Shown here piece by piece: positions 2,489 through 54,475 of a stretch of DNA of 64,000 nt. The position numbers were made by a program, and so were the translations under genes. Origin of the DNA: an uncultured Bacteroidota bacterium (GTDB lineage: Bacteria; Bacteroidota; Bacteroidia; Bacteroidales; CG2-30-32-10); contig CAISZK010000072.1 of assembly GCA_903889915.1 (NCBI GenBank), forward strand, positions 1,585-65,584, in the 5' to 3' direction. The notes below the pieces were generated by a model. The model saw nothing but the letters and a program-made list of their open reading frames with translations. It was not told the origin of the DNA and did no database searches. Within the stretch, counting starts at the first letter, position 1. The number at the start of each line of letters is the position of its first letter.

Positions 2489-2549
2489 CACTACCACCCT
2501 TCCCTCCTTCCCTCCTTCCATCCTTCCATCTCTCACCTTCTTTTCCATC

Positions 2550-2616
2550 TTAACCAAATCTTAATCCGATATTAATTCCCCCTTAATTCCGGCTATCTGT
2601 TGATTGAATAGTTTTG
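2550..2616 (+). promoter_or_regulatory. phased cTTAAt boxes plus -7 box (TAGTTTTG)
   Basis: TTAA cores at 2550, 2561, 2572 and 2583 (exact 11-bp phasing). TAGTTTTG starts at 2609, 26 bp after the last core and upstream of the 2689 gene. Confidence 0.5.
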
Positions 2617-2688: not shown

Positions 2689-3360
2689 ATGGAACAGCAT
2701 ATTGTAAAAATAAAATTGATCGAGAAGACAACTCATGATGTGCTGCATATTCTCACCGAGAAACCTCTGAAATATGTTTACACACCCGGACAAGCAACGG
2801 AAATTTCAATCAACAAACCCGGCTGGACTGATGAACGGCGGCCTTTCACCTTCATCTGCACTCCCGAACATACGTATCTTGAATTCGCCATCAAAACCTA
2901 TCCCGAACGCCACAGCGTCACCAACCAACTGCTGCAACTGAAAGTGAATGATGAGTTGATACTGCACGAGGTTTTTGGTACCATCGGCTACAAGGGTGAG
3001 GGTGTATTTATCGCCGGAGGCGCAGGCATCACTCCGTTTATTTGTATTTTCAGACAGCTTCGGGAAACAAATAAGATAGGAAACAACAAGCTCATCTTTG
3101 CCAACAAAACCATGGAAGATATTATTCTTGGGCAGGAATTTAAAAAAATGTTGGGCAGTAACTTTATCAACATACTGTCGGAGCAAAATGTGGAAGGCGT
3201 TGCTCATGGAATCATCACACAGGATTTTCTGAAAGGACATCTCGATAAACCGGGGCAAAACATCTACATCTGCGGTCCCGACCCCATGATGGATGCAGTA
3301 TGTGGCTTTTTAGCCAACCTGCATGTGGATGAAAATTTAATTATTAAAGAAGCTTTTTAA
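2689..3360 (+). CDS. FAD/NAD(P)-binding oxidoreductase (ferredoxin-reductase-like fold)
   Basis: 223-aa ORF with an RPFTF flavin-binding-type motif and a GGAGITP nucleotide-binding motif. The two-domain length fits small FNR-like reductases. Confidence 0.7.
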   Translation: MEQHIVKIKLIEKTTHDVLHILTEKPLKYVYTPGQATEISINKPGWTDERRPFTFICTPEHTYLEFAIKTYPERHSVTNQLLQLKVNDELILHEVFGTIGYKGEGVFIAGGAGITPFICIFRQLRETNKIGNNKLIFANKTMEDIILGQEFKKMLGSNFINILSEQNVEGVAHGIITQDFLKGHLDKPGQNIYICGPDPMMDAVCGFLANLHVDENLIIKEAF

Positions 3361-3502: not shown

Positions 3503-3919
3503 ATGGAGCAAAATATCTCTCTTACACCCTTTATTGTCTTCGTTATTATTACGGTCGCTCTTGTGGGGATAATGATCGTTCTTTCTTATTTTTTAGGTGA
3601 ACGCCACAAAGAAAAGACCACCGACGATGCTTTCGAATCAGGCATCATTCCCACCGGCGATGCACGCCTGCGCTTCTCTTCCAGCTTTTACATCATTGCC
3701 ATGTTCTTCGTCATATTCGATCTCGATGCTGCTTTTATTTTTCTGTGGGCAGTATCATTCCGCGAGCTGGGACTGCCCGGTTATATCGGAGTATTCATCT
3801 TTATAGCCATCCTGATGGTACTTTTAATTTATGAATTAAGCATAGGCGCTATTGACTTTGGACCTAACGGCAAAAAGATACTGAAGTCAAAAAACAAATT
3901 CAAATCATCGCTTCCATGA
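3503..3919 (+). CDS. nuoA: NADH-quinone oxidoreductase subunit A
   Basis: 138 aa with three hydrophobic segments. First gene of the nuo cluster. Its stop overlaps the nuoB ATG (ATGA). Confidence 0.9.
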
Positions 3920-4539
3920 TCACAACTATCAGCAAAAATATGGTTACAGATAACCAACTCACCGAAGAAGCGATTCATAAATCAATACTTTTCGGAAAGT
4001 TGGATGAAATGGTAGCATGGGGAAGAAAAAACTCAATATGGCCTTTTGGCTTTGGTCTTTCATGTTGCTTTGTTGAAATGGCCACTTCCATTACCAGCAG
4101 GTATGACATTTCCCGCTTTGGAGGCGAGGTTATCCGCGGCACTCCCCGCGAAGCCGACATGATGGTGGTTGCAGGAACTGTCTTTATCAAGATGGCTCCT
4201 ATTATCAAAAGACTTTACGAACAAATGATGGCTCCCCGCTGGGTGATCTCCATGGGTTCCTGTGCAAATTCGGGTGGCATGTATGATATTTACAGTGTGG
4301 TGCAGGGCGTTGATAAAATTCTGCCTGTTGATGTTTATGTTCCCGGTTGCCCTCCCCGTCCGGATGCTTTTCTTGAAGGGTTGCTCTTGTTGCGCGAAGC
4401 AATAGGCAATGAACAAAGGCCTTTCAGTTGGGTGGTAGGCAGTCAGGGAGTTCATAAAATTGAAAAGAAAAACAACAGGGATTTGAAGCAGGAAGAACGC
4501 AGCAGGATGGAAAATTTAAGACCGATGAACGGAATTTAA
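3916..4539 (+). CDS. nuoB: NADH-quinone oxidoreductase subunit B
   Basis: N2 cluster ligand motifs are present: [18 protein letters not shown] and VPGCPPRP. Confidence 0.95.
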
Positions 4540-4552
4540 TTCACGTTGTTGA

Positions 4553-6307
4553 ATGAACAATACTGACCGAAACATATTATCAGAGATCGCTTCCGCATTT
4601 GGCGACAATGCCATCCTTTATCATCAGTTGACAAAGGATGACACGCCCACTATCTGGATTGAAAAAAACAGTCTGGTGAAGGTATTGCAACATCTGAAGA
4701 ACGGAATAAGCGAACCCTATAAAATGCTTTTTGACCTTACCGGCATTGACGAACGAACAAGAACGCATTTAAATGGTCAGCCAAAATGTGATTTCACAGT
4801 GGTTTATCACCTCACTTCTTTTGAACGAAATGAAGACATCCGCATCAAAGTTCCGCTCAAAGAAAACGATCTACAATTGCCCACCATTACCAATGTTTGG
4901 GAATCGGCCAACTGGTACGAGCGCGAGGTTTACGATATGTTTGGTATTGACTTCACCGGTCATCCCAAACTGACAAGGATATTAATGCCCAGGTCATGGA
5001 AAGGTTTCCCGTTAAGAAAAGAACATCCGGCAAGGGCTACGGAACTTGCACCTTATGTATTGACAGAAACAATGAGGGATGAAGAGGAAGCCGACCTGAA
5101 ATTTAACCCTGCAGAATACAGGATGGAAACAAAAAGTGAAGACAGTGATTTCATGTTTCTGAACATAGGTCCTCAACATCCCGGAACACATGGTTTATTG
5201 AGATTGATCGTTCAACTGCACGGTGAAGATATTGTGGACATCATTCCCGATATAGGTTTTCATCATCGCGGCGCTGAAAAAATGGGTGAAAGGCAGTCAT
5301 GGCATACGTACATTCCCTACACCGACCGCATTGATTACCTGAGTGGCGTTATCAACAATCATGCATACCTGCTGTCGGTTGAAAAACTTGCAGGAATAAA
5401 GATACCCGAAAGGGCTGATGTGATACGCATCATGATGAGCGAGCTTTTCCGTATTGCAAGTCACCTTGTATGGATCGGCACTTTTGCACAGGATATGGGA
5501 CAGATGTCGCCGGTGTTCTATGCCTTCAACGACAGGGAAAGAGTGTTTGATATAGTGTCGGCAATAACAGGTGGCCGCATGCATCCTTCCTGGTTCAGGA
5601 TAGGCGGTGTGGCTCATGATCTGCCCGATGGCTGGGAAAAACTTGTTCAATCCTTTGTGGATTATTTTCCGAAACGACTGAAAGAATATGACAAACTCAT
5701 TATAAAGAACTCAATTTTCAAAGCAAGAACGGTTGGCATCGGCGTTTACACAACTGAAGAAGCTATTGAATGGGGAATAACAGGCTCAGGACTCAGAGCT
5801 ACCGGATATAACTGGGATTACCGCAGGAAACGCCCTTATTCACGCTATGAAGATTTCGATTTTGAAATACCACTGGGAAAGAATGGCGATTGCTACGACA
5901 GGGCGATTGTGCGAATGGAAGAAATGCGGCAAAGTCTGAGAATAGTGCAGCAATGCATCAACAACATGCCTGCGGGGCATTACAAATCCGATCATCCGCT
6001 GACAGTACCTCCCAGAAAAGAAAAGACTATGCAGGATATTGAAACGCTCATCAACCATTTTGTAAACGTTTCATGGGGTCCTGTAATTCCTGTCGGCGAA
6101 GCAATGGTGCCGATTGAAGGAGCCAAAGGGATCAATGGTTATTATCTGATAAGCGATGGAAGCACCTCATCCTACCGCTCACGGATAAGAACGCCTTCAT
6201 TCCCGCACATGCAGATGCTGCCATTTATCAGCAAGGGATATACGATCCCTGATCTGCTTTCTATACTTGGCGCAATGGATTTTGTTTTAGCTGACCTCGA
6301 CAGATAA
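4553..6307 (+). CDS. nuoCD: NADH-quinone oxidoreductase fused subunit C/D
   Basis: 584 aa. The N-terminal part is NuoC-like ([14 protein letters not shown]). The C-terminal part is NuoD-like ([11 protein letters not shown] ... DFVLADLDR). Confidence 0.95.
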
Positions 6308-6347
6308 ATAAAGAAAAAATTAAAGATAATAACGATTTTAAATGATG

Positions 6348-6447
6348 ATAAAATCCCGAAGGGATGAAATGATTATAGTAATAAGAAGCATGAGTATTTT
6401 AAAACCCCGAAGAGGTGATATAATATCTCATACCTTCTGGATTTTGC
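6348..6447. repeat. ~100-bp three-hairpin-module repeat (copy 1) in the nuoCD-nuoE spacer
   Basis: Modules lie at 6353-6365 (ATCCCGAAGGGAT), 6404-6416 (ACCCCGAAGAGGT) and inverted at 6430-6442. The element aligns along its length with 16755-16856. Confidence 0.7.
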
Positions 6448-6469
6448 ACAACATCACACAATATTATCA

Positions 6470-6934
6470 ATGCTGACTGATATAGAAAAAAAAGAAATAA
6501 TGGAAGAAGCCGGACAATATCCTTATCCGGCTGTTGCCTGCATTGATGCTTTAAAGATCGTGCAGCACCATCGCGGATGGGTGTCGGACGATTCAGTGAA
6601 AGATATTGCACAATTACTTGAAATATCAAATGAGGATGTGGACGGTGTTGCAACATTTTACAGTCGTATATACAGAAAACCCGTTGGCAGGAATGTGATA
6701 CTGATCTGCGATAGCATTAGTTGTATGATCATGGGTTATGAATCAATGTACGAATACATCTCTTTGAAACTGGGGATACACTTTGGAGAAACAACAAACG
6801 ATGGGCGCTTCACACTGCTCCCAAATTCATGTCTCGGCGATTGCGATCATGCCCCTGCGATGATGGTAAACAATGACCATTATAACAAACTGACTTTTGA
6901 AAAAATTGATGAATTGCTTTCGAATTATAAATAA
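6470..6934 (+). CDS. nuoE: NADH-quinone oxidoreductase subunit E
   Basis: 2Fe-2S ligand motifs CDSISC and CLGDCDHAP. Position in the operon. Confidence 0.9.
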   Translation: MLTDIEKKEIMEEAGQYPYPAVACIDALKIVQHHRGWVSDDSVKDIAQLLEISNEDVDGVATFYSRIYRKPVGRNVILICDSISCMIMGYESMYEYISLKLGIHFGETTNDGRFTLLPNSCLGDCDHAPAMMVNNDHYNKLTFEKIDELLSNYK

Positions 6935-6940
6935 GCTGTG

Positions 6941-8218
6941 ATGGAAAAGCCACTGACCAAATATATAACACCCGGTTCTCCCCCTCCTGATCTGAAAGAA
7001 TACAGCAGGATTGGTGGCTATGCATCTGCTCATAAGGCTTTGAAAGAAATGTCGCCTGCTGAAATCACAAGCCTGGTAAAAGCTTCTAATCTTCTTGGCA
7101 GAGGTGGCGCAGGTTTCCCAACGGGTTTAAAATGGAGTTTTGTTCCTATGGGCGAAAACAGTCCGAAACCAAAATACCTTATTTGCAATGCTGATGAAAT
7201 GGAACCCGGCACCTTTAAAGACAGGTATCTTATGGAAGGCAATCCGCATCAGTTGATCGAAGGTATGATCATTTCCTCTTATGCCATTCAGGCTGAAAAA
7301 GCATACATCTTTATTCGCTGGGCATATAAAAAGGCTGAAAAAGAACTTCGCAAGGCATTGGCAGAAGCTTATGCAGCAGGTTATCTTGGAAAGAACATTC
7401 TGGGTTCAGGCTTTGATCTTGACATTTATATTCATTCTAGTGCCGGCAGGTATATCTGTGGAGAAGAAACCGCCCTGTTCAATTCTCTTGAAGGGAAAAG
7501 AGCTATTCCCCGCACCAAGCCTCCATTTGCAGCAATCAGTGGTTTGTTTGGCAAACCTACTATTGTGAACAATGTTGAAACACTGGTTTGGATACCTCAT
7601 ATTATTGAGCGTGGTGCGGAATGGTTTAAAAACTTAAGTATGACAGGTGCAGGAGGAACTAAACTTTATGGTGTTAGCGGAAGAGTAAAAAATCCCGGTC
7701 TTTGGGAATTGCCGTTGGGAACAACATTGCGCGAAGTTATAGAGGAACATGCAGGAGGTATGCTGGATGGATACAAATTCAGGGGAGTGATTCCCGGTGG
7801 CATTTCAACAGACTTTATGCTTGAAAAACACATGGACGTAAATATGGATTTCTCAAATGTTGGCGCTGTAGGAAGCAGACTGGGAACAGGGACGATGATC
7901 ATTCTGGATGACAAAACATGCCCCGTAGCTTTTATCCATAACATTGAAAAATTCTTTGCTCTTGAAAGTTGCGGCTGGTGCACTCCCTGCCGTGAGGGTC
8001 TTGCATGGGTTGAAAAATTGCTGGCTTCTATTGAAGAAGGTACAGGCAAAATGGAATATTTAGACATATTAAAATTTCACACAAAATACTTATGCTTCGG
8101 AAATACCTTTTGTGCGCATGCTCCCGGAGCAGCAGAACCCCTGCAAAGCGGTCTGGAATATTTTCACGATGATTTTGTTCAGCATATTAATGGAAAAAAA
8201 TGTCCCTGGAGATCATGA
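6941..8218 (+). CDS. nuoF: NADH-quinone oxidoreductase subunit F
   Basis: GRGGAGFPTGLKW (FMN/NADH site) and ESCGWCTPCREG (4Fe-4S). ATG at 6941; an in-frame GTG at 6938 is the alternative start. Confidence 0.95.
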   Translation: MEKPLTKYITPGSPPPDLKEYSRIGGYASAHKALKEMSPAEITSLVKASNLLGRGGAGFPTGLKWSFVPMGENSPKPKYLICNADEMEPGTFKDRYLMEGNPHQLIEGMIISSYAIQAEKAYIFIRWAYKKAEKELRKALAEAYAAGYLGKNILGSGFDLDIYIHSSAGRYICGEETALFNSLEGKRAIPRTKPPFAAISGLFGKPTIVNNVETLVWIPHIIERGAEWFKNLSMTGAGGTKLYGVSGRVKNPGLWELPLGTTLREVIEEHAGGMLDGYKFRGVIPGGISTDFMLEKHMDVNMDFSNVGAVGSRLGTGTMIILDDKTCPVAFIHNIEKFFALESCGWCTPCREGLAWVEKLLASIEEGTGKMEYLDILKFHTKYLCFGNTFCAHAPGAAEPLQSGLEYFHDDFVQHINGKKCPWRS

Positions 8219-10932
8219 TAGTAAAGATACGGATAGACGGAAAATATTATGAAACCAAATTAGGGAAGAATCTTCTTGAGGCTTGCCTTGAATTGGGATT
8301 GAACATACCCCATTTCTGTTATCATCCGGCTCTTGGCTCTGTGGGTGCCTGCAGACTCTGTGCTGTAAAGAGATTCAAAGACGCCGACGACAAAAAAGGC
8401 CATATCATTATGTCGTGCATGGAGCCTGTAACCGAAGGAATGATAATTTCCATTGAAGATGCCGATGCAAGTGCAATAAGAGCTGCCGTTATTGAAGGTG
8501 TGATGACCAATCACCCCCATGATTGTCCGGTTTGTGACGAAGGTGGTGAATGTCATTTGCAGGATATGACCGTGATGGCAGGGCATAACTACAGGCGATT
8601 TGATTTCAAAAAGAGAACTTATAAAGACCAGGATCTGGGATCCTTCATTAACCATGAAATGAACCGCTGTATTCAGTGTTATCGCTGCATGAGGTTCTAC
8701 AGGGATTATGTAGGTGGAAAAGATCTGAATGCTTTTGCAGCCCACAATTATGTTTATTTTGGAAGACATGAAAATGGCGCTCTTGAAAGTGAATTCAGCG
8801 GCAACCTTGTGGAAGTATGTCCTACCGGAGTGTTTACAGATAAGACCTTAAAAAAACATTTCACCCGCAAATGGGACCTTTCTAATGCACCTTCAGTTTG
8901 TGTTCATTGCAGTGTTGGTTGCAATACAATAGTTAGCGAAAGGTATGATTCTCTCAGGCGCATCATGAGCCGTTATAATGGCGCAGTGAATGGATATTTC
9001 ATCTGTGACCGTGGCAGGTTTGGTTATGAATTTGTCAATGATGAAAAACGGATAAGAAATCCTAAGATCCGGATAAATAAAAATGAAAAACAGGAAGAGG
9101 TTTCAGAAAATAATTTGATACTTACATCACTGACTGAGTCATTCTCGAAGGATAAAAAGATAATAGGAATAGGTTCACCCAGGGCATCACTAGAATCAAA
9201 TTATTCATTGTTAAGCCTTGTAGGACAAGAGAACTTTTATCATGGAATTTCAAAAAGAGAATATAATCTGACAAAAACTGCTTTGGATTTTCTAAGAAGC
9301 AGCAGTGTTAAGACTCCTTCTCTGAAACAAATTGAAAAAGCTGATGTCGTTTTTATTTTAGGTGAAGACATAACAAACACAGCGCCTATGACTGCACTGG
9401 CAGTGCGTCAGGCAGTGCGCAATAAACCAAAGGCCGCAGCTACTGAAAAAGGAATTCCATTATGGAACGAATATCCTATCAGAAACTATACTCAGGATTC
9501 CAAAAGCCCGGTTTTTATTGCAACAGCAATAAAAGATCGTCTTGATGATATTGCAGAAAAAACTTTCAGAGGCTCGAATGCAGATATTGCTGGTTTGGGA
9601 ATTGCTGTTGGATCATTATTAAATGACGAAGCTTCAACATTAAAATTATCTTCAAATGATCAGCAGGAACTTGCTGAAAAGATAGCTCTTTCATTAAAAA
9701 ATGCAAAACATCCTTTGATCATTACAGGAGTTAATTGTGGTGATGAAGAAATATTGCATGCTGCTTTAAACATTTCCATAGCACTTCGCAAGAATAATCC
9801 TGAGGCGATGCTGAGCATTGCATTACCTGAATGCAACAGTATGGGATTGGCAATGCTTCCCGGCAAACCACTTGATGAAGCAATTTCAATTGCCTCAAAT
9901 GAGATTATTGACACGCTGGTTATCTTGGAGAATGATCTTTACAGAAGAACCACTAAAGAATCTGTGGATGTTCTTTTCGAAAAGAGTAAGCAGGTAATAG
10001 TACTTGATCATTTAATAAATAAAACTTCACAAGATGTCGATATCGTGATCCCGGTTTCAACATTTGCTGAATCGGAAGGAACGCTGATAAATAATGAAGG
10101 CCGTGCTCAGCGCTATTATAAAGCGATCAATAATAAAGATGAAGTTAAAGAAAGCTGGAGATGGATAGGAGATTTAATAAAACTCAGGAATAATGATCAG
10201 TCAATCCCATGGAACAACTTTGATGAACTGGTTTCATCATTGGTGAACGAACTGCCTGCATTTTCAAAGTTAAAGGAATATATGCCCGATGCTGATTTCC
10301 GCATGTACAATGCAAAAATACCAAGGCAGAGTTTACGCTACAGTGGCAGAACTGCAATGAATGCAAATATTGCAGTGAGTGAACAAAAGGTCGCAGAAGA
10401 TAACGATTCTCCATTGGCTTTTAGTATGGAAGGGCAGGGAGAACAACCACCTTCTTCACTTGTTCCTTTCTATTGGACTCCGGGCTGGAACTCCGTTCAG
10501 GCTTCCAACAATTATCTCGATGAACTGAATGGTTCATTAAAGGGTGGTGATCCTGGGATCAGGCTGGTTGAATCAAATGGAGAAAATAAAAGCTCATATT
10601 TCAAAATAGATTCTCACACAGTTGACTTACAAAAGAACGAATTATTGATTGTCCCTGCCTACAGTATTTTCGGTAGTGAAGAATTAAGTTCGGCTGGTGA
10701 AGCTATCAAACAAAGGATACCTGAACCATTTGTTTACTTATGCGAAAAAGATGCAGATATTTTTGAGTTTAAGGATAATGATATGATCACAATTGAAATT
10801 GCAAAAAGTAAAATAGAACTGAAAGTAATAATTGAAAATAGTTTGAAACAGGGAGTAGCAGTAGTGTCAGTCAATCTGCCTGGCATGCCATTTATTGATC
10901 TGCCAGCTTCCGGAATATTCAGTAAAATGTAA
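8215..10932 (+). CDS. nuoG: NADH-quinone oxidoreductase subunit G (long form)
   Basis: N-terminal Fe-S cysteine clusters ([40 protein letters not shown]). The ATG at 8215 forms an ATGA overlap with the nuoF stop. An ATG at 8200 is an alternative start. Confidence 0.9.
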
Positions 10933-10939
10933 GCAGTAC

Positions 10940-11884
10940 ATGAATTATTTATTGATCATAGGAATTACACTTTTCGTTGTGCTGTCCATAGCAGCAGGAT
11001 TGATATGGATTGAGCGGAGGCTTCTTTCTGTGTGGCAGGACAGGCTTGGGCCAAATCGTGTCGGTCCGTTTGGGCTTTTTCAGGTGATCGCCGATACTAT
11101 CAAATTATTTTTTAAAGAAGACTGGGTTCCTCCTTTCTCTGATAAACCTGTGTTTATTCTGGCTCCGGGGATACTCATGGTTACCATCCTTCTGACATTT
11201 GCAGTTATTCCATTTGCTCCTGATTTCTATGTCTTCGATTCGAACATTGGAATACTTTTCTTCCTGGGAAATTCATCGTTGGGAGTCTATAGCATAGTAC
11301 TGGGTGGATGGGCATCCAATAATAAATACTCATTCATCGGCGCGATGAGAGCATCAGCACAGATGTTGACGTATGAGGTTTTCATGGGGCTTTCTCTTAT
11401 GGGCGTTGTTATGATGGCCGACAGTTTCAGCTTTCGTGCAATAGTGGAAGCACAAAAGGACTGCTGGTTCATCATTCCTCAATTCTTTGGATTTGTTGTG
11501 TTTTTTATTGCAGGCGTTGCCGAAACCCATCGTCTTCCGTTTGATATTCCTGAAGCTGAAGGTGAACTCATCGCAGGATATCATTCTGAATATTCAGGGA
11601 TGAAATTCGGGATGTTCTTTGTGGGTGAATACCTCGGCGTAACGCTGATATCGGCGATCATTGCTACTTTGTTTTTTGGCGGTTGGCTGGGGCCATCGTT
11701 TTTGCCCCCTGCCTTTTGGTTCTTTCTTAAGACATTCTTTTTCATTTTTGTGTTTATCCTACTTCGTGCCTCATTACCACGACCGAGATATGATCAATTG
11801 ATGTCGCTTGGATGGAAACTATTATTGCCACTTGCATTGCTTAATATACTTATTACCGGAGCCGTTCTATTATTCTTAAAATGA
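10940..11884 (+). CDS. nuoH: NADH-quinone oxidoreductase subunit H
   Basis: Polytopic protein with the conserved [16 protein letters not shown] loop. The ATG at 10940 lies just after the nuoG stop (10932). The track start at 10895 would overlap nuoG by 38 bp. Confidence 0.9.
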
Positions 11885-11910
11885 AAATAAATAATCAAAT
11901 ATAATCCCGA

Positions 11911-12426
11911 ATGTTCAGTATCCTTCGTACAATATGGTTGACTTTTCTTCACATTTTCCACAGATCGGAGACAGTAGAATATCCCGAAGTGAAGCCATAC
12001 CTAGCACCGCGCTACAGGGGAAGAATTGTTCTGACAAGGGATGATGAAAAAAAAGAACGTTGTGTGGCTTGTTATCTCTGTGCAGCCGCCTGTCCGGTTG
12101 ATTGCATTGCATTGCAGGCTGCAGAAGATGATAATGGCAGAAGATATCCCGAGTTTTTCAGGATAAACTTTTCAAGATGTATATTCTGCGGATTCTGTGA
12201 AGATGCCTGTCCAACATACGCAATCCAACTGATACCTGATTTTGAAATGGCGGAGTATGACAGGCAGAATCTGGTTTATGAAAAAGAAAACCTGCTGATA
12301 AGTGGAGAAGGAAAATACCCGGGATATAACTTCTATAAAAATGCAGGTGTTGATATGGGAGTAAAAAGAAAAGGGGATGGATTGACCGAAGAAAAGCCCG
12401 TGGATGTTAATGATCTGATGCCTTAA
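11911..12426 (+). CDS. nuoI: NADH-quinone oxidoreductase subunit I
   Basis: Two 4Fe-4S ferredoxin motifs, [12 protein letters not shown] and [12 protein letters not shown]. Confidence 0.95.
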
Positions 12427-12440
12427 AATTATTTAGAAAA

Positions 12441-12959
12441 ATGGATGTATTCTTTTATATAGCGGTTGCAATTGCCATCTTTTCAACAATAATGGCCATT
12501 TCGAGGAGAAATGCCATACATGCTTTGCTATATCTCATTCTTTCTCTTCTGGCAGTTTCGGTTGTTTTCTATTTGCTTTCCGCTCCTTTCATCGCAGCTC
12601 TCGAAGTGATCATTTATGCAGGCGCTATCATGGTGTTGTTCATTTTTGTTGTCATGATGCTGAACATCGGGCTTGAAAAAAGTATGGAAAAGAAATGGCT
12701 TAACCCGCGGATGTGGATAATTCCATCACTATTAGCCGGTATTCTTCTCGTGGTTTTGTTTCTAGCCTTGAGCAATGTTGGGAGTTTGACAGAGAATAAA
12801 GGAGATATATTACCCAAACAGGTTGGTATTTCATTATTCTCAACATATCTGCTAGGAGTTGAAATCGCCGGTATCCTATTGATGGCAGGTGTTATCGGAG
12901 CATATCATTTAAGCAGTCAAAATAAGAAAGTTACTCATCGTTTTCTTGAAAAGAAATAA
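12441..12959 (+). CDS. nuoJ: NADH-quinone oxidoreductase subunit J
   Basis: 172-aa polytopic membrane protein in the expected operon position. Confidence 0.85.
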   Translation: MDVFFYIAVAIAIFSTIMAISRRNAIHALLYLILSLLAVSVVFYLLSAPFIAALEVIIYAGAIMVLFIFVVMMLNIGLEKSMEKKWLNPRMWIIPSLLAGILLVVLFLALSNVGSLTENKGDILPKQVGISLFSTYLLGVEIAGILLMAGVIGAYHLSSQNKKVTHRFLEKK

Positions 12960-12962
12960 ATT

Positions 12963-13283
12963 ATGCTGACCATTCCAATAGAAACTCAAATATTGTTTGC
13001 CGGAATTCTCTTTTTTCTGGGGCTTATCGGCTTGCTGGTTCGCCGGAATATGATCTTTATGCTCATGTCCATTGAGATCATGCTGAACAGCGCAGGACTG
13101 GTTTTCATCATTGCAGGAAATCACTGGAAACAACCCGACGGACAGGTGATGTTTATTTTTATTCTGACAGTGGCTGCCGTCGAGGTGGCAATAGGTCTGG
13201 CATTGATACTTCAGGTTTATCATCATTATAAAACCCTTGATGCTGATGCAGTGAATAAATTAAGGGATCAAAATTCAAAGTGA
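12963..13283 (+). CDS. nuoK: NADH-quinone oxidoreductase subunit K
   Basis: 106-aa protein with three transmembrane segments in the expected operon position. Confidence 0.85.
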   Translation: MLTIPIETQILFAGILFFLGLIGLLVRRNMIFMLMSIEIMLNSAGLVFIIAGNHWKQPDGQVMFIFILTVAAVEVAIGLALILQVYHHYKTLDADAVNKLRDQNSK

Positions 13284-13284
13284 G

Positions 13285-15168
13285 ATGGAGAAATCAACAT
13301 TCATAGCTCTTTTACCTGCCATACCGCTCTTCAGCTTTTTGGTTCTTGCTCTTTTCGGGAATAAACTTTCGCGCAAAGCTACAGGATTCATAGGAGCCGG
13401 TTCAATAGGTATCGTGGCTCTTTTGACTTTAATTATTGCAACAGAGTTTTTTCATTCACTGCCTCAGATCAAAACATATACGGTTGTCGTTTGGGAATGG
13501 ATCAATGCGGGGAACTTGAAAGTAAATATATCCTTCAGCCTTGATTCTCTTTCATTGGTTTTTTGCTTTGTCATTACATTCGTTGGGTTTCTCATACATC
13601 TCTACTCCATCGCATTCATGGCAAAAGATGAGGGTATTAAAAGATTCTTTGCATACATGAATCTCTTTGTCGCCTCCATGCTCATTCTTGTTCTGGCAGA
13701 TAATATTCTTCTTCTATATCTTGGTTGGGAAGGTGTGGGTCTGTGCAGTTATCTGCTGATAGGTTTCTGGTACAAAGAACCTGCAAACGGCTATGCAGCG
13801 AGAAAAGCATTTATCATAACACGTATTGGCGACACAGCCATGATCATTGGAATTTTCATACTATTCATAACTTTTGGCACAGTCAACATTCATGAATTGA
13901 TGCAGCTTGCTTCTGCAAAATGGGCATCAGGTTCATCAATAGCAGTTATAACCGCGGCATTGTTACTTTGTGGCGCTTTGGGGAAGTCGGCACAATTGCC
14001 ATTGCAGACATGGCTGCCCGATGCTATGGCCGGTCCTTCGCCTGTGAGCGCCCTGATACATGCAGCGACCATGGTCACAGCAGGCGTTTATCTTATTGCA
14101 CGTACAAATATGTTGTTCAGTCTTGCTCCTGTTGTACAATTTGCAATAGCAATTATCGGTGCGTTGACATTGCTGATAGCCGGATTCAGTGCGCTGGCGC
14201 AACATGATCTGAAGAGGATACTTGCTTACTCCACCATTAGCCAGATAGGTTATATGTTCCTTGCCCTTGGCGTGGGAGCATGGTCGGCAGCTATATTTCA
14301 TTTTATGATACATGCCTTTTTCAAAGCGTTGCTTTTCCTCGGTGCCGGTGTGGTTATCCTGGTGCTGGACGAAGAGCATGATATTTTCAAGATGGGCGGA
14401 CTAAGAAAAAAGATGCCTGTGGTGTTTTGGACTTTCCTCATCGGCTCTGCTTCACTCTCTGCATTGCCTCTGATAACAGCAGGTTTTTACAGCAAGGACC
14501 AGATACTTTGGTTTGCCTATTCTTCCGAAAGCGGAAGCCTGTGGCTATGGATAGCAGGCATAGTGGGCGCATTCCTCACAGCATTGTATTCTTTCAGAAT
14601 GATATTTATTGTCTTTTTCGGTGAGAGCAAAACGCTTCCATCTTTTAATGCAGGTAAGCTTATGACCGTTCCACTCGTTATTCTTGCTGTTCTTTCACTT
14701 ATAGGAGGCTTTGTAGAACTTCCTGAATCCTTCGGGAACTTTCATCCTTTCTCTAAACTCATTGAAAATGTTTTGCCGGTTGTTCTCATAAAAGATATAG
14801 GTAATCTTGAAATTCTGTTCCAGTTGCTTTCGGCTGTCATCGCGCTGACGGGGGTTTATCTTGCATACATCATTTACTTTAAGAAACCGTCATTGTCAGC
14901 ATCTTTTAACCACAGCCATCTCAACAGGTTTTTTGAAAAAGGCTGGGGCTTTGATAAGTTATACGATACTTTGATAGTGGTGCCTGTTGTCTGGCTTTCT
15001 GAAATTGACAAGAATGATTTCTTTGACTGGATGAACATCGGCTTATCAAAGCTGGCGCTGCTTTTGAACAGTCTATTCAGTATTACTCAAAACGGAAAAT
15101 TAAGATGGTATCTGATGTCGTTTGTCATTGGCATCGCCTTCATTTTAACTTTTATGCTTTATAAATGA
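13285..15168 (+). CDS. nuoL: NADH-quinone oxidoreductase subunit L
   Basis: 627-aa antiporter-like subunit (WEGVGLCSYLLIGFW motif) with a long C-terminal extension. Confidence 0.9.
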   Translation: MEKSTFIALLPAIPLFSFLVLALFGNKLSRKATGFIGAGSIGIVALLTLIIATEFFHSLPQIKTYTVVVWEWINAGNLKVNISFSLDSLSLVFCFVITFVGFLIHLYSIAFMAKDEGIKRFFAYMNLFVASMLILVLADNILLLYLGWEGVGLCSYLLIGFWYKEPANGYAARKAFIITRIGDTAMIIGIFILFITFGTVNIHELMQLASAKWASGSSIAVITAALLLCGALGKSAQLPLQTWLPDAMAGPSPVSALIHAATMVTAGVYLIARTNMLFSLAPVVQFAIAIIGALTLLIAGFSALAQHDLKRILAYSTISQIGYMFLALGVGAWSAAIFHFMIHAFFKALLFLGAGVVILVLDEEHDIFKMGGLRKKMPVVFWTFLIGSASLSALPLITAGFYSKDQILWFAYSSESGSLWLWIAGIVGAFLTALYSFRMIFIVFFGESKTLPSFNAGKLMTVPLVILAVLSLIGGFVELPESFGNFHPFSKLIENVLPVVLIKDIGNLEILFQLLSAVIALTGVYLAYIIYFKKPSLSASFNHSHLNRFFEKGWGFDKLYDTLIVVPVVWLSEIDKNDFFDWMNIGLSKLALLLNSLFSITQNGKLRWYLMSFVIGIAFILTFMLYK

Positions 15169-16685
15169 TACTCTTTTATCTCATAGCTATATTATTGGGT
15201 GGCGCTTTTCTTTCATGGATGGCAGGCCGCCTGAGCGCTGCATTGCCGCGCATCATTTCGCTGGTTGCACTGACTGCCGATCTTATACTGATCGTAGCGT
15301 TCGTTTTGCAATTGGATACTCTCAACAACAAATGGCTGGTGGATCTCAACGCGGATTGGATACCTAAATTCGGCATCAGCTTTCATCTGGCGCTCGACGG
15401 GCTTAGTCTGCTGATGTTGATACTTACTTTTTTCCTTGGCATCATATCAATCATCATTTCGTGGAAAGAGATAAAAGTGCGGGTTGGTTTCTTTCATTTC
15501 AACCTGCTGCTAATCCTTGCCGGCATCATTGGTGTGTTTCTATCGCTCGATCTTTTTCTTTTCTATTTCTTCTGGGAACTGATGCTTGTTCCGATGTATT
15601 TCCTTATCGGGATATGGGGTCATGAAAAGAGGATAGCCGCTTCGTTCAAATTCTTCCTCTACACGCAGGCAAGCGGACTGCTTATGTTCATCGCCATACT
15701 TGCATTGTATTTTGTTCACGGAAGATCCACGGGAGTCTATACTTTTGATTACATGCAGTTGCTGGGAACGCAAATGGGATATACAACCGAACTATTGATC
15801 ATGCTGGGTTTTCTTGCTGCCTTTCTTGTCAAGCTGCCTGTTGTGCCTTTGCATAACTGGCTTCCCGATGCTCATTCCGAAGCGCCAACGGCAGGAAGTT
15901 TAATACTTGCAGCATTGCTATTGAAAACAGGCGCTTATGGCTTGCTCAGGTTTGTTGTTCCTTTGTTTCCCTCGGCATCCGTGTCTTTTGCACCTATCGG
16001 AATGTTGCTTGGAGTGGTTGGAATATTATACGGGGCCAAGCTTGCATTTGCGCAAACCGATCTTAAACGGCTGGTTGCCTACACCAGTGTGAGCCACATG
16101 GGATTTGTGATACTCGGAGTATTTTCTTTCAACGAAATTGCATACCAGGGCGTGGTCATGCAGATGATAGCCCATGCCATCAGCACAGGCGCCTTGTTTA
16201 TTTTAGCCGGGCAACTTTACGAACGCACGCACACAAGAGACCTCAACAAAATGGGTGGACTGTGGGAAACCGCTCCCGTGATGGGCGCCGTAGGGCTTAT
16301 CTTCGCCATGGCTTCTCTGGGCTTGCCGGGATTGGGAAATTTCATTGCCGAACTTTTGATTCTTCTTGGCGCTTTTAAAGCCAATGTTTTCATGTCGTGC
16401 CTGGCGAGTGTCGGGCTGATCGCAGCAACAATATATTCCCTGCGCATTGTTCAGAAGATCTTCCTTGGAAAGAAAATAACGGATTGGAAATTCAATGACC
16501 TTACGATACGCGAAAAAATTGTTTCCGCATCCCTGGTAATAATAATTGTATGGCTCGGGATATTCCCGCGCACTGTTTTGAACACAGCCAAACCAGCATT
16601 GCAAAAGACTTTAGAAGTGCAGAAAGAAAATAATAATGACAATAATAAAACGGAAAGTATTTTGGATTTAAGGTTTAAGAATTAA
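15165..16685 (+). CDS. nuoM: NADH-quinone oxidoreductase subunit M
   Basis: 506-aa antiporter-like subunit. ATGA overlap with the nuoL stop. Confidence 0.9.
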   Translation: MILFYLIAILLGGAFLSWMAGRLSAALPRIISLVALTADLILIVAFVLQLDTLNNKWLVDLNADWIPKFGISFHLALDGLSLLMLILTFFLGIISIIISWKEIKVRVGFFHFNLLLILAGIIGVFLSLDLFLFYFFWELMLVPMYFLIGIWGHEKRIAASFKFFLYTQASGLLMFIAILALYFVHGRSTGVYTFDYMQLLGTQMGYTTELLIMLGFLAAFLVKLPVVPLHNWLPDAHSEAPTAGSLILAALLLKTGAYGLLRFVVPLFPSASVSFAPIGMLLGVVGILYGAKLAFAQTDLKRLVAYTSVSHMGFVILGVFSFNEIAYQGVVMQMIAHAISTGALFILAGQLYERTHTRDLNKMGGLWETAPVMGAVGLIFAMASLGLPGLGNFIAELLILLGAFKANVFMSCLASVGLIAATIYSLRIVQKIFLGKKITDWKFNDLTIREKIVSASLVIIIVWLGIFPRTVLNTAKPALQKTLEVQKENNNDNNKTESILDLRFKN

Positions 16686-16754
16686 GATTTAAAATAACCT
16701 GAAAATAGAACACTGATCTCACTTATAAAACTGATAATTGATGTTAAACATTAA

Positions 16755-16913
16755 GATAAAATCCCGAAGGGATGATATTATTATAATGAGTATAGAGCCA
16801 CCGATTCTAAAACTCCGAAGGAGTGAAATTATAATGTCACCCCTTCAGGGTTTTGGAACTCTCATGATTTTATTTTCTATAATAATTTCAGTCCTTCGGA
16901 CTTTTTCCTAAAA
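16755..16913. repeat. hairpin-module repeat (copy 2, four modules) in the nuoM-nuoN spacer
   Basis: Modules at 16761-16773 (ATCCCGAAGGGAT) and 16812-16824 (ACTCCGAAGGAGT). Inverted modules at 16839-16851 and 16890-16902. The last is followed by TTTTT. Confidence 0.7.
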
Positions 16914-16948
16914 TCAACGATTGATACAGATAATAATTTGATATTATT

Positions 16949-17101
16949 GACTATTGACTAATGACTAATGACCAATGACAATTAATGACAATTAATGACC
17001 ATCAATGACCATTAATGACCATCAATGACCATTAATGACCATCAATGACCAATGACAATTAATGACCATCAATGACCATCAATGACAACTGACCAATGAC
17101 C
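16949..17101 (+). repeat. 7/10-bp tandem repeat (GACYAAT / GACMATYAAT) running into the nuoN start codon
   Basis: About 18 contiguous units. The last unit, caATGACC, supplies the nuoN ATG at 17096. Confidence 0.85.
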
Positions 17102-18517
17102 GAAACCGACTTTCTCTGCCTAACCCCCTTCCTCATCCTCGCTTTGGCTCCCATCGTGATCATGCTGGTGATCTCTATTTTCAGGAACTACGAGATCGTG
17201 TTCGGCTTTTCACTATTGTCACTGATACTTGCTTTCGCCGCACTATTTTTCATCGCACCAGCAATTCCGCACAGCATACAGCCTTTGTTCATCATCGACA
17301 TGTACAGCCTTTTCTTCCTCGGCATCATTTTTATCTCCGCGTTTATCGTGGCTTTGCTTTCTTACAATTACATAAAACGACTTGAAGGCGTGAGGGAGGA
17401 ATATTATATCATCCTTTTCACATCCACACTGGGCGCGGCTTTGCTGGCTGTGGCCAACCATTTTGTTCTCTTTTTCCTCGGCATCGAAACGCTGAGTATT
17501 TCATTGTACATCCTCATCGCTTTTCAGCGAACCAAAGACAATTCAATTGAAGCGGGCATAAAATATCTGATCCTCGCTTCGGTGTCCACCGCCTTTTTAT
17601 TGTTCGGCATGGGGCTTATCTACACGGCTTTCGGAAGCATGATGTTCAGTGAGATCGCGACAGCCATCAGTCTTCAGGGACCACTGACTTCCCTTGCCAT
17701 CACCGGTTTCGGGATGATGCTCGTGGGCATTGGCTTTAAACTTGCCCTCGTGCCTTTCCACGCGTGGACGCCCGACGTTTACCAGGGAGCGCCCGCACCC
17801 GTCAGCGCTTACATTGCCACAGTTTCAAAAGGCGCGGTGATGGCCGTGCTCATTAGGTTTTTCTTCAACATCAAAGGCTTCGACGATCACTATCTCTTCA
17901 TCATCATTTCAGCCATTGCCATCCTCTCCATGTTCATCGGCAACATTCTTGCCATCAGGCAGCAAAACATCAAGCGGCTGCTGGCTTATTCGTCTATTGC
18001 AAACATGGGATACCTCATCATCATTCTGCTCACGGGCACCAACAAAGGCATACAGGCATCGCTGTTTTACCTCATCTCCTATTTTATCACCACCATCAGC
18101 GCCTTTGGAGTGATCACGCTGCTTTCCAATGCGAAAAATGAAGCCGAAATGATCAGCGACTACAAAGGTCTTTTCTGGAAACGACCTTTTGTTGCCATTG
18201 TTTTCACACTTGCGCTGCTGTCGCTGGCCGGAATTCCCATCACCGCGGGTTTCATCGGAAAATTCTATGTCATCTTCGAAGGCATGAAAGCCGGGCTGAT
18301 GCTGCTTGTGTTTGCGATGATCATCAGCAGCGTTATCGGTTTATACTATTACCTGCGCGTCATCACCACCATGTTTTCGCCCGCTGGTGAAACAACATTG
18401 CCACAAATAACTTTCATGGGAAAATTCACCCTTGCCGCAATTACAATAAGCATTCTCATTCTGGGAATTTACCCGGGATGGTTGATTGATATCATCACAA
18501 GATTTGTGGGATTGTAG
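17096..18517 (+). CDS. nuoN: NADH-quinone oxidoreductase subunit N
   Basis: 473-aa antiporter-like polytopic protein, last gene of the cluster. Confidence 0.9.
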   Translation: MTETDFLCLTPFLILALAPIVIMLVISIFRNYEIVFGFSLLSLILAFAALFFIAPAIPHSIQPLFIIDMYSLFFLGIIFISAFIVALLSYNYIKRLEGVREEYYIILFTSTLGAALLAVANHFVLFFLGIETLSISLYILIAFQRTKDNSIEAGIKYLILASVSTAFLLFGMGLIYTAFGSMMFSEIATAISLQGPLTSLAITGFGMMLVGIGFKLALVPFHAWTPDVYQGAPAPVSAYIATVSKGAVMAVLIRFFFNIKGFDDHYLFIIISAIAILSMFIGNILAIRQQNIKRLLAYSSIANMGYLIIILLTGTNKGIQASLFYLISYFITTISAFGVITLLSNAKNEAEMISDYKGLFWKRPFVAIVFTLALLSLAGIPITAGFIGKFYVIFEGMKAGLMLLVFAMIISSVIGLYYYLRVITTMFSPAGETTLPQITFMGKFTLAAITISILILGIYPGWLIDIITRFVGL

Positions 18518-20724: not shown

Positions 20725-20791
20725 TTAATACAATCTTAATTTTCATTTAATTCTTTCTTAATTTACCTCTCTGCTTTCAGCTATACTTTTG
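20725..20791 (+). promoter_or_regulatory. phased cTTAAt boxes plus -7 box (TACTTTTG)
   Basis: TTAA cores at 20725, 20736, 20747 and 20758. TACTTTTG starts at 20784 (26 bp after the last core), 20 bp before the ATG at 20811. Confidence 0.5.
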
Positions 20792-20810: not shown

Positions 20811-21365
20811 ATGAAGGATTCCAAAAAGGAAATTGATGAAATATTAAAAGAATTTCCTGAAAATATTGCACAGCTATTCCACCATCTGCAGCAGGAAACA
20901 AACACCATTGCCAGAATTGATGCGAAAAACAGTCTCGAGAAAATGGGAAAAAGCATTCTTCCTTATTTGAATAAACTCCTCTTTGTGCACGATGAAATGT
21001 TCCGCAGGGAAGTTGCAAAGATCATGGAATTTATAGCTGACAAAACATCCATCCCGGTATTTATTGATCTTCTTGAGGACAGTGATGGCGGCATCCGCTG
21101 GACCGCTGCCGTAGGTTTGATCAGCATTGGCCGCGACAGCATCATCCCGCTTCTCAAAGCAATTCTCGACGATGAAAATGGTTCCTATTTCCTGCGGTTG
21201 GGCGCCCATCATGCTTTTGAATCTTTATTTAACGACGATGAAAAGATCACACTGAAACCCTTGCTCCTTAGCCTGAATAACTACCTTGGCATGGGCGAAA
21301 CCGTGTCACTCGAAACCCTCCATGCTCTGAAAAAATTTGAACAAAAGAATAATAAAAAGAGGTAA
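20811..21365 (+). CDS. HEAT-repeat protein
   Basis: 184 aa with repeated helical-hairpin motifs of HEAT/PBS-lyase type (LLEDSDGGIRWTAAVGLISIG). Confidence 0.6.
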   Translation: MKDSKKEIDEILKEFPENIAQLFHHLQQETNTIARIDAKNSLEKMGKSILPYLNKLLFVHDEMFRREVAKIMEFIADKTSIPVFIDLLEDSDGGIRWTAAVGLISIGRDSIIPLLKAILDDENGSYFLRLGAHHAFESLFNDDEKITLKPLLLSLNNYLGMGETVSLETLHALKKFEQKNNKKR

Positions 21366-21368
21366 AAT

Positions 21369-21438
21369 TCCAAGATCCAAGATCCAAATTCCAAATTCCA
21401 AATTCCAAGATCCAATATCCAATATCCAATATCCAACA
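21369..21438 (+). repeat. heptamer microsatellite TCCAARW x10
   Basis: Ten contiguous 7-bp units fill the HEAT-tal spacer and end 5 bp before the tal ATG. Confidence 0.9.
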
Positions 21439-21442
21439 AATT

Positions 21443-22573
21443 ATGAAAATAAATCCACTAAAACTATTAGAATCATTTGGCCAGTCAGTCTGGCTCGATT
21501 ATATCAGCCGCGACCTTATTGCAAGCGGGGAACTGCGCAAACTCATCAATGACGACGGGCTTAAAGGAATCACCTCAAACCCCTCCATCTTTGAACAAGC
21601 CATCGCAAAAAGTTCTGATTATGATTTCGACATTAAGAAACTGGCAATTCAGGGAAAAAGTCCCGATGAAATTTACGAATCCATCAGCCAGCACGACATC
21701 CTTCGTGCCGCTGATGAACTCAAACAAGTATATGAAAAATCCGAAGGCAGGGATGGCTATGTCAGTCTTGAAGTAAACCCTCATCTTGCCCACGACACCA
21801 ATGGAACCATTGAAGAAGCCCGCCGCCTCTGGACAGCCCTCAACCGTCAGAATGTTTTTATCAAAGTTCCCGCTACCAAAGAAGGCTTACCCGCCATTCA
21901 ACAACTCATCACCGACGGCATCAATGTAAATGTAACTTTATTGTTCGGACTGCCCCGCTACAGAGAGGTGATTGACGCATATATTGCAGGAATTGAAGCC
22001 AGGATTGAGCAGGGAAAACCTGTGAAGAATATCAGCTCAGTGGCCAGTTTCTTCATCAGCCGCATAGATACCATCATTGATCCGCAAGACCTGGATTATA
22101 TGGCAATGGGTGGCGAACAGGTGCATTTTGCAACCAACATCCGTGGTCAGGTTGCAATATCGAGCGCCAAGATCGCTTACAATATTTACAGAGAAATTTT
22201 TGAAAGCCGCGGGTTCGCCCAACTTGTTGAACAGGGCGCCAGACCACAGCGTCTCTTATGGGCAAGCACAGGCACAAAAAATCCTGAGTACAGCAACATC
22301 AAATATATTGAATCCCTCATCGCACCCAATACCATCAGTACAATGCCACCAGACACTATGGATGCTTATCGCGATCATGGGCACCCTTCATACCGCCTGA
22401 TAGATCATTTTATGAAAGCATGCTGGATCATGTCCGAACTGACTGAGCTTGGTATTGACATTGATCAGGTCACACAAAAATTGGAAGATGAAGGAGTGGA
22501 GAAATTTATTGTATCGTTCGACAAATTGCTGGCAACTATTACAGGCAAATCATTAGAGTTCCTTAGAAAGTAA
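21443..22573 (+). CDS. tal: transaldolase (long type)
   Basis: 376 aa with GITSNPSIF and FIKVPATKEG (Schiff-base lysine context) motifs. Confidence 0.85.
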   Translation: MKINPLKLLESFGQSVWLDYISRDLIASGELRKLINDDGLKGITSNPSIFEQAIAKSSDYDFDIKKLAIQGKSPDEIYESISQHDILRAADELKQVYEKSEGRDGYVSLEVNPHLAHDTNGTIEEARRLWTALNRQNVFIKVPATKEGLPAIQQLITDGINVNVTLLFGLPRYREVIDAYIAGIEARIEQGKPVKNISSVASFFISRIDTIIDPQDLDYMAMGGEQVHFATNIRGQVAISSAKIAYNIYREIFESRGFAQLVEQGARPQRLLWASTGTKNPEYSNIKYIESLIAPNTISTMPPDTMDAYRDHGHPSYRLIDHFMKACWIMSELTELGIDIDQVTQKLEDEGVEKFIVSFDKLLATITGKSLEFLRK

Positions 22574-22681
22574 AAGGTTTAAAATAAAATTTTTAAAAAT
22601 ATTATTTCAATGAAATAATCAGTGAGAAAGCTATTTTGAAATTCTGACTTATTCATTCAAATAAAAATTAAACTGAACAAT

Positions 22682-24094: not shown

Positions 24095-24106
24095 AAATCT
24101 ATAATT

Positions 24107-25636: not shown

Positions 25637-25637
25637 T

Positions 25638-26387: not shown

Positions 26388-26449
26388 TAGAAATAAACGG
26401 GAATGAAAAGAGGGCTTATGAAAAAAGAATATTACTCTCCCAGAAAATT

Positions 26450-40851: not shown

Positions 40852-40867
40852 AAACTTACTCATATCT

Positions 40868-54423: not shown

Positions 54424-54475
54424 CCAAAGATTTTTTTTCATACTATTTTAATTTACTTTTAATTCAAGTTTAATT

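Follow-up and report, generated by a model that had tools for sequence, protein, structure and literature searches.

The PmrA box consists of two XTTAAY hexamers separated by a 5-nt spacer, and the DNA-binding domain of PmrA prefers CTTAAT and binds head-to-tail. The site overlaps or replaces the -35 element, and direct contact with RNA polymerase was revealed in a cryo-EM structure of the complex. In Helicobacter pylori, HP1043 (HsrA) binds TTTAAG-N5-TTTAAG on the coding strand, with 11 bp from centre to centre and the -35 element absent. The nuoA promoter was footprinted in that work, activation was inferred by its authors, and the regulator was linked to oxidative and homeostatic stress. 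For Streptomyces PhoP, multi-copy 11-nt direct-repeat units (DRus) have been described. For ArcA, sites of 2-5 direct repeats at 11-bp spacing have been described, which mostly serve to repress redox and respiratory genes.

Four TTAACA-like repeats are found in the sites of Bacillus subtilis PhoP, and the content of the Escherichia coli SoxRS regulon includes sodA, fumC, zwf and fpr. The established housekeeping -7 consensus of Bacteroidota is TAnnTTTG. To our knowledge, how transcription is activated in this phylum has hardly been worked out past the -33/-7 consensus and a few regulators of gut and oral species.

We analysed a 64-kb stretch of DNA from an uncultured Bacteroidota bacterium (64,000 nucleotides, called the window below). 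An earlier reading of its letters, here called the original prediction, had placed TTAA-cored boxes on an 11-bp grid in five intergenic regions, each locked to a downstream -7-like octamer. Reading the five regions directly, we found that all the predicted core and octamer positions were correct:

2549..2592, + strand: array 1, units CTTAAC / CTTAAT / ATTAAT / CTTAAT, 11 bp each; TTAA cores at 2550, 2561, 2572 and 2583
2609..2616, + strand: -7 box of array 1, TAGTTTTG, 22 nt past the last TTAA
20724..20767, + strand: array 2, units CTTAAT / CTTAAT / TTTAAT / CTTAAT; TTAA cores at 20725, 20736, 20747 and 20758
20784..20791, + strand: -7 box of array 2, TACTTTTG
54356..54399, + strand: array 5 (degenerate), units ATTAAT / GTTAAT / TTCAAT / TTTAAT; cores at 54357, 54368, 54379 (TTCA) and 54390
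54416..54423, + strand: -7-like box of array 5, AACCTTTG, imperfect
54447..54475, + strand: partial three-unit array, TTTAAT in each unit, in a presumed 5' leader; cores at 54448, 54459 and 54470
58230..58273, + strand: array 3, four copies of CTTAATGTCTT, a near-perfect 11-bp tandem repeat; TTAA cores at 58231, 58242, 58253 and 58264, with an additional off-grid core at 58280
58290..58297, + strand: -7-like box of array 3, CAAATTTG, imperfect
61699..61742, + strand: array 4, units ATTAAC / TTTAAC / CTTAAT / TTTAAT; TTAA cores at 61700, 61711, 61722 and 61733
61759..61766, + strand: -7 box of array 4, TACTTTTG

In all five arrays the distance from the last on-grid core to the start of the octamer was exactly 26 bp, as had been predicted. 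The five octamers all end in TTTG, and three of them match TAnnTTTG in full. Every array runs in the same direction as the gene downstream and all units are head-to-tail. We found no TTTG at the -33 position of the window arrays, where the proximal unit occupies the place of the -33 element. The proposal that the boxes share one face of the helix held approximately, as a period of 11 instead of 10.5 bp produces a drift of about 1.5 bp over an array. The array 2 region also occurs in four metagenome strain copies (L001-L004), which are uninformative on conservation because the region is identical in all of them. Two further box groups were absent from the original prediction. One is the partial array (54448/54459/54470), which at 54448-54473 stops 2 nt before the ATG at 54476 with no -7 box after it; the other comprises six CTTAAT(T) boxes with a 21-bp period at 20221-20326.

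The array pattern is real and far above chance. Runs of at least three TTAA on a fixed grid occurred five times at period 11 and zero times or once at each other period from 5 to 24. The four-box pattern TTAA-N7 x4 gave 4 matches in the window, and 100 shuffles that preserved dinucleotides averaged 0.00. Two boxes followed by TTTG at the fixed offset matched 4 times, with 0.10 expected. When one mismatch in the 16 core bases was allowed, the 64 kb yielded six sites, namely the five claimed arrays and the partial array at 54448-54473. With a weight matrix of the 11-mer unit, the five arrays scored 31-44 bits, a range that is circular because the same arrays trained the matrix, while the untrained sixth site scored 22.6 and nothing elsewhere on either strand scored above 12. 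A k-mer search of the window revealed no period-11 arrays of k-mers unrelated to the TTAA boxes, and Rfam returned one tRNA only for the window, with no match overlapping the arrays.

These controls also bear on the possibility that the arrays are functionless short tandem repeats of a kind common in the intergenic regions of this genome. The window does hold many intergenic tandem repeats of 7, 10 and 21 bp, and the near-perfect repetition in array 3 suggests that arrays can regenerate by unit duplication. However, arrays 1, 2, 4 and 5 conserve only the box and differ in their spacers, and the architecture with its -7 register recurs in many genera and on more than 120 metagenome contigs. The shuffles of the window gave 0.00. 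We regard the probability of a functionless repeat as negligible.

The genes downstream of the window arrays have the identities that had been claimed for them:

2689..3360, + strand: FNR/Fpr-like flavoprotein, FAD/NAD-binding, 223 aa, the first gene after array 1
3503..18517, + strand: nuoA-N (complex I), directly after the FNR-like gene
20811..28540, + strand: HEAT-repeat gene, then tal, gnd, zwf, pgl and tkt (pentose-phosphate operon)
54476..57574, + strand: 1032-aa protein with a T9SS C-terminal sorting domain, after array 5
58375..61476, + strand: 1033-aa T9SS-sorted protein, after array 3
61799..63838, + strand: 679-aa OmpA-family outer-membrane protein, after array 4

Several sources name homologues of the FNR-like protein flavodoxin or ferredoxin-NADP reductase. 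Its direct succession by nuoA-N had been overlooked in the original prediction. The 142-bp gap between the FNR-like gene and nuoA contains neither a terminator-like site nor a TTTG-containing -7 candidate; the sigma-70-type promoter scanner used is unsuited to Bacteroidota and served for terminator-like sites only. The gap between the HEAT-repeat gene and tal is heptamer repeat throughout. Transcription from arrays 1 and 2 may therefore extend through complex I and the entire pentose-phosphate operon, and nuoA-N is possibly co-transcribed with the FNR-like gene. An inverted repeat lies at 3424-3452 in the FNR-like/nuoA gap. The 1033-aa and 1032-aa T9SS proteins are presumed to be paralogues, given their near-identical length and domain layout. 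At five loci of more distant FNR-like orthologues (65-70 % identity) there was no array upstream, and array membership of the window genes is therefore lineage-specific. The neighbours of these array-less orthologues include Usp, ferritin, SOD, rubrerythrin and DHOD-like genes.

The same architecture was found in other genomes and in metagenomes. The genome scan covered one genome per species and used TTAA-N7 x4 followed, after a free gap of 12-32 nt, by TANNTTTG; the matches listed are a sample. Among the 132 listed, the gap was exactly 22 nt in 47 and 23 nt in 10, and every other gap length occurred 1-7 times. The 22-nt matches listed came from Bacteroidales-labelled MAGs, Prolixibacteraceae, Flavobacterium, Hymenobacter, Pedobacter, Cytophagales and Ignavibacteria. 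Since the 22-nt lock recurs across these taxa, it is a property of a phylum-level group and not of the window genome alone. Sub-classes could be told apart by the base after TTAA, with TTAAT in Bacteroidales-type MAGs, TTAAG in Flavobacterium, TTAAC in Ignavibacteria and alternating T and G in Hymenobacter. A strict metagenome pattern, TTAAT-N6 x4, N21 and TANNTTTG (26 specified bases), returned at least 129 arrays on at least 120 contigs, often several per contig.

Among the matches listed, 115 non-identical arrays had exactly four units, no fifth unit and no -33 TTTG. The bases ahead of the units are T-C for units 1, 2 and 4 but 'a' for unit 3, a design that window arrays 1 and 2 share. G is almost excluded before the box, and a T-rich stretch lies ahead of the -7 box. 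The TAnnTTTG -7 box was present in all 129 arrays listed for the strict pattern, which ends in TANNTTTG. When promoters of ECF sigma genes from four species were aligned, the invariant columns included the TTAA cores and the TTTG of the -7 box, with variable spacers between boxes. Likewise, more than a dozen distinct SOD promoter sequences kept the boxes and the register and varied in the rest. This fixed four-unit architecture, with its T-C and 'a' pattern, suggests two dimer sites.

The original prediction had left room for a curved-DNA or UP-like module. Such an element would be protein-independent curved or flexible DNA, or a contact for the RNA polymerase alpha subunit, and the arrays would simply lend these promoters their strength. 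The boxes are indeed A/T-cored, phased near the helical repeat and placed at about -33 to -75, partly in UP-element territory. Neither curvature nor an alpha-subunit contact calls for a conserved C before the box, the exclusion of G or exactly four units of the T-C-TTAAT type. Moreover, the class is lineage-restricted and lies at stress genes and regulators, not at a recognizable housekeeping set, and the tRNA gene and the tRNA-synthetase gene of the window have no array upstream. We therefore consider this explanation very unlikely.

We then asked which genes follow the arrays elsewhere; the genome and metagenome counts below are samples, and the gene-family frequencies may lean towards abundant taxa. 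Of the strict TTAAT metagenome arrays listed, 97 had a downstream ORF, and by Pfam 22 of these were followed by an Fe/Mn superoxide dismutase, 9 by an ECF sigma factor, 8 by a small AraC regulator (a BLAST cluster contained 12), 7 by Dps/ferritin, 5 by a response-regulator receiver and 2 by FumC (class II fumarase). Phosphofructokinase, fatty-acid desaturase, OmpA and others were singletons among the 97. The array-linked SOD proteins are 29-100 % identical to one another. In the genome scan, the TTAAT class precedes genes for ECF sigma factors, small AraC proteins, Usp, Dps/ferritin, OmpA, a TolC-like protein and an OmpR-type response regulator. Downstream of the TTAAC(A) x4 class, which keeps the same gap, lie genes for phosphate-selective porins, a PHO4 transporter and a TonB receptor, as expected if PhoB-type regulators share the docking geometry; in Ignavibacteria and some Bacteroidota this class is likelier to be the Pho box. 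In Flavobacterium, the TTAAG class is followed by a ferritin and, alone among the array classes, by sulfatase-family membrane enzymes.

In the window, the Fpr-like flavoprotein and the pentose-phosphate operon with zwf resemble members of an oxidative-stress regulon, a reading that draws on gene content. The T9SS and OmpA targets have no obvious fit to such a role.

The frequency of ECF sigma genes in the candidate regulon could be taken to mean that an alternative (ECF) sigma factor recognizes these promoters, with the TTAAT box as its upstream element, and a distinct sigma factor was among the options of the original prediction. The arrays argue otherwise. At the normal downstream position the promoters carry the housekeeping TAnnTTTG -7 box, one upstream element would suffice for a sigma factor where four phased copies are present, and the ECF genes lie downstream of arrays as their targets, with a second canonical-looking promoter nearer their start codons. 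We regard the sigma-factor option as highly improbable.

The small AraC regulators lead to the main alternative, in which the arrays would be bound by an AraC-family protein of about 186 aa that governs a superoxide regulon in the manner of SoxS or MarA. Two monomers would span the four boxes, each inserting two helix-turn-helix motifs into adjacent major grooves. AraC genes are among the commonest targets listed (8 of 97 by Pfam, the BLAST cluster of 12, and also the loci L018 and L071), self-activation is typical of marA, and a regulon with sod, fumC, zwf and an fpr-like gene recalls that of E. coli SoxS. However, AraC monomers carry two unlike helix-turn-helix motifs and read an asymmetric box of about 20 bp, whereas units 1, 2 and 4 are alike and show no A-B-A-B order. 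In addition, the hexamer, the 5-nt spacer and the head-to-tail layout are exactly those of winged-helix regulators. We therefore disfavour the AraC protein and judge it unlikely.

Our preferred explanation, which we consider probable as a whole, is that the arrays are class II activator sites of the OmpR/PhoB family, serving an oxidative or redox-stress regulon under a CopR/CusR/HprR-like regulator lineage. Each array would bind a winged-helix response regulator that works as an activator of the housekeeping sigma factor. The consensus unit is T-C-TTAAT plus 4-5 variable bases with an 11-bp period, and four head-to-tail units would hold two dimers; the array is read as two dimer sites because it matches the published OmpR/PhoB geometry. 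The proximal unit fills the site of the absent Bacteroidota -33 element (TTTG). As this element is absent, we propose that the promoter stays weak without the phosphorylated regulator, which would bind and then touch RNA polymerase in the way seen in the PmrA structure. The regulon would include superoxide dismutase, Dps/ferritin, FumC, Usp and second-tier ECF sigma and AraC regulators. Its members in the window would be the Fpr-like flavoprotein, probably together with complex I, as well as the zwf/gnd operon, the two T9SS proteins and the OmpA-family protein. The sequences directly show the motif with its statistics, the locked spacing, the conservation across species and the genes that follow, whereas we infer that a protein binds and activates, what induces it and which regulator it is. 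Of the options in the original prediction, an activator regulon is the one supported, by the OmpR/PhoB-type box, its spacing, its orientation and its place over the missing -33 element, the locked distance to the -7 box and the coherent set of stress genes.

A repressor, or a dual regulator like ArcA, might also use such arrays as operators and occlude the promoter. ArcA itself offers a precedent with its 2-5 direct repeats at 11-bp spacing, through which it mainly represses redox and respiratory genes, and the three-box array at 54448-54473 sits in the presumed leader, a typical position for repression. A repressor, however, needs neither a base-pair lock to the -7 box nor a systematic loss of the -33 element. 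Both features point to contact with the polymerase and argue for activation, not repression, and we find occlusion distinctly unlikely.

The likeliest regulator belongs to an as yet unnamed CopR/CusR/HprR-like, OmpR-family lineage of environmental Bacteroidales. One genome match (L113) has its array in front of an OmpR-family regulator, homologues of which, 72-93 % identical, are found in many environmental Bacteroidales. Three independent lineage members (L113, the second tandem copy in L131, and L197; 78-84 % identical) have an array upstream, and so do two receiver-only paralogues, an arrangement that hints at autoregulation. Neighbours of the lineage genes encode large GAF/PAS histidine kinases, and one genome also has a KaiC-KaiB-KaiB cluster beside them. 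At L129/L130 the regulator is followed immediately by an FNR-like orthologue with 54 % identity to that of the window over the full length. We found no array upstream of the single-copy members of the lineage (L126-L129), and the window itself lacks a response-regulator gene; for these two reasons the candidate is suggestive only.

Against curated models, the candidate scored 227 bits for CopR/CusR/HprR, the nearest group, below its cut-off of 279. Other identities were rejected: PmrA (164 bits, cut-off 330), Bacteroidota PhoB (180 bits, cut-off 270) and RprY of Porphyromonas and Bacteroides (129 bits, cut-off 370), which we kept only as a loose functional parallel. In the literature searched we found no published RprY motif for comparison, and work on RprY binding in Porphyromonas gingivalis has used the sod promoter as its negative control. 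The DNA-binding domain of the candidate is closest to PcoR/CusR (E 2e-24), compared with E 3e-8 for PmrA, and the shared half-site is therefore not explained by orthology. A likeness of the recognition helix to that of PmrA (residues T-N...V-H) was set aside as not diagnostic, since PcoR, the closest solved domain, has these residues too.

These results lead us to a linked pair of wider proposals, which we put forward tentatively and regard as doubtful in combination. According to the first, a docking rule for OmpR-family activators would operate at the level of the phylum, so that Bacteroidota and Ignavibacteria alike use four 11-bp units and keep exactly 22 nt between the final TTAA and the -7 box. 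The rule would be reused by the TTAAT stress class, the TTAAC(A) phosphate class, the TTAAG envelope class of Flavobacterium and the alternating class of Hymenobacter, because the unusual housekeeping sigma factor would offer a single contact geometry. According to the second, the TTAAT class would be a two-component counterpart of SoxRS/OxyR. It would belong to anaerobic, uncultured Bacteroidales, with GAF/PAS kinases supplying its input and a KaiBC module next to it in at least one genome.

A promoter class that can be scanned for could allow an oxidative-stress regulon of uncultured wetland and freshwater Bacteroidales to be predicted straight from metagenomes, and a concrete candidate regulator with its sensor kinases can now be named. 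The fixed geometry between activator and -7 box may be usable for inducible Bacteroidota promoters. In addition, the scheme suggests a way in which anaerobes, strict or facultative, might tie together superoxide dismutase, Dps, the supply of NADPH (through the pentose-phosphate pathway and the Fpr-like reductase), respiration and surface proteins in sediments where redox conditions fluctuate.

How new is this class? The original prediction had not recognized the boxes as a described motif. This did not hold for the half-site, which is of the known PmrA/HsrA type; it did hold for the rest, as the literature searched contained no description of a four-unit TTAAT class with a 22-nt lock to the -7 box and a regulon of SOD, Dps, FumC, pentose-phosphate and Fpr-like genes. 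The type of mechanism is thus already known, but neither the four-unit promoter class of Bacteroidota nor the regulon it serves seems to have been described. The likeness to SoxRS lies in gene content only (superoxide dismutase, FumC, zwf and fpr) and is a functional analogy, as SoxRS combines a MerR-type sensor with an AraC-type activator that reads an asymmetric 20-bp box. Like Pho boxes, the arrays are built from 11-nt units in which about 6-7 bases are conserved and 4-5 vary, they have more than two such units, and they lie in an activator position just upstream of the -10 element or its counterpart. Unlike the Pho regulon, which answers phosphate starvation, the TTAAT class precedes oxidative-stress genes, and no phosphate-acquisition genes follow the window arrays. 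The arrays resemble the HP1043/HsrA sites in that 11-bp repeats replace the upstream element in promoters of the housekeeping sigma factor, and in a possible link to nuoA. They differ in having four units instead of two and T instead of G as the sixth base, and they belong to Bacteroidota and Ignavibacteria, whereas HP1043/HsrA is an orphan, essential global regulator of an epsilonproteobacterium. With the PmrA/BasR box of Enterobacteria they share the CTTAAT-type hexamer, the 5-nt spacer, the 11-bp period, the head-to-tail order and the position at the upstream element. They depart from it in comprising four units in place of two half-sites, in being paired with the Bacteroidota -7 box at a 22-nt gap where PmrA is paired with a sigma-70 -10 element, and in the genes that follow, since the PmrA regulon serves lipopolysaccharide modification (arn/pbgP, ugd and eptA/pmrC) and the targets of the TTAAT class are stress and redox genes.

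We found that arrays with the 22-nt gap of the window recur upstream of other genes, with box sequences that differ between groups. CTTAAC(A) arrays of four units with this gap are present at seven loci from other genomes or metagenome contigs (L031, L035, L109 and L120, and also L052, L055 and L111). They precede genes for phosphate-selective porins, a PHO4 transporter and a TonB receptor, and their hosts are Ignavibacteria and some Bacteroidota. The CTTAAC(A) arrays are probably Pho boxes of these two phyla. In Flavobacterium species (L022, L024, L066, L073), arrays of three to four aTTAAG units, again with the 22-nt gap, lie upstream of genes for membrane proteins of 645-697 aa with a sulfatase/alkaline-phosphatase-type domain, an arrangement that recalls PmrA control of eptA-type enzymes. 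The Hymenobacter arrays (L009, L010, L122) alternate TTTAAT(G) and TTAAG units, giving a 22-bp super-period, and are followed by genes for ABC exporters and a TetR regulator.

Arrays also precede ECF sigma genes with a long leader (L034, L080, L102). Alignment of these promoters across species (alignment A2, columns ~300-370) revealed that the leaders hold, near the start codon, a second promoter that is conserved and looks canonical (TTTG ... TATATTTG). In one Bacteroidales genome (L126, 1-5765), the gene for the candidate regulator, the OmpR-family response regulator proposed to bind the arrays, is divergent and adjoins genes for one KaiC-like protein, two KaiB proteins and a pair of PAS histidine kinases.

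The FNR-like protein encoded downstream of array 1 may be an electron-transfer partner of a DHOD-like enzyme of the PRK07565 family. A single cluster at L256 (1851-4775) combines SOD with genes for rubrerythrin-like, FNR-like and DHOD-like proteins. At L145 (5039-6046), on a contig whose sample of origin also yielded one copy of the window, a DHOD-like gene of this family carries a TTAAT array itself. Directly upstream of array 1 is an 8-bp tandem repeat, CCATCCTT x4.6, with a pyrimidine-rich tract (2494-2530). A perfect 10-bp inverted repeat (CACATAGAAA ... TTTCTATGTG) lies between the FNR-like gene and nuoA (3424-3452), and no T-run was found past it.

Array 5, upstream of one of the two T9SS-sorted protein genes, is followed 3' of its -7 box by a three-unit TTTAAT array (54447-54475) that ends 2 nt before the ATG at 54476. 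No -7 box was found after these three units, which may represent either an operator in the leader or a remnant. Six CTTAAT(T) boxes recur with a 21-bp period, or two helical turns (20221-20331), some 400 bp ahead of array 2, the array that precedes the HEAT-repeat gene; five read CTTAATT and the last CTTAATG. No -7 box was found 26 bp past the last one. The boxes fall within a doubtful ORF (20203-20697), whose start is placed at 20203 or 20349 by different metagenome gene calls.

Other tandem repeats of the window have periods of 21, 42 or 63 bp, or form long intergenic arrays of heptamer or decamer units:

Tandem repeats in the window
20343-20540, 37528-37688 and 51872-52167, further repeats of period 21/42/63 bp, part within small ORFs
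16948-17086, intergenic, TGACTAA x4.6 running into CAATGACCAT x11.7
21365-21436, intergenic, AAAATCC x10.3
36519-36543, intergenic, TTGGTTC x3.6
37789-37862, intergenic, TGACCAT x10.6
40867-40916, intergenic, TGACTAT x7

The small ORFs holding some of the 21/42/63-bp repeats had no family matches, and these repeats may either encode heptad-repeat peptides or be non-coding. The heptamers of the window differ in sequence from those published for Bacteroidetes, Cyanobacteria and Beggiatoaceae, but their arrays resemble the 'heptamer direct repeats upstream of start codons' described in some members of these groups.
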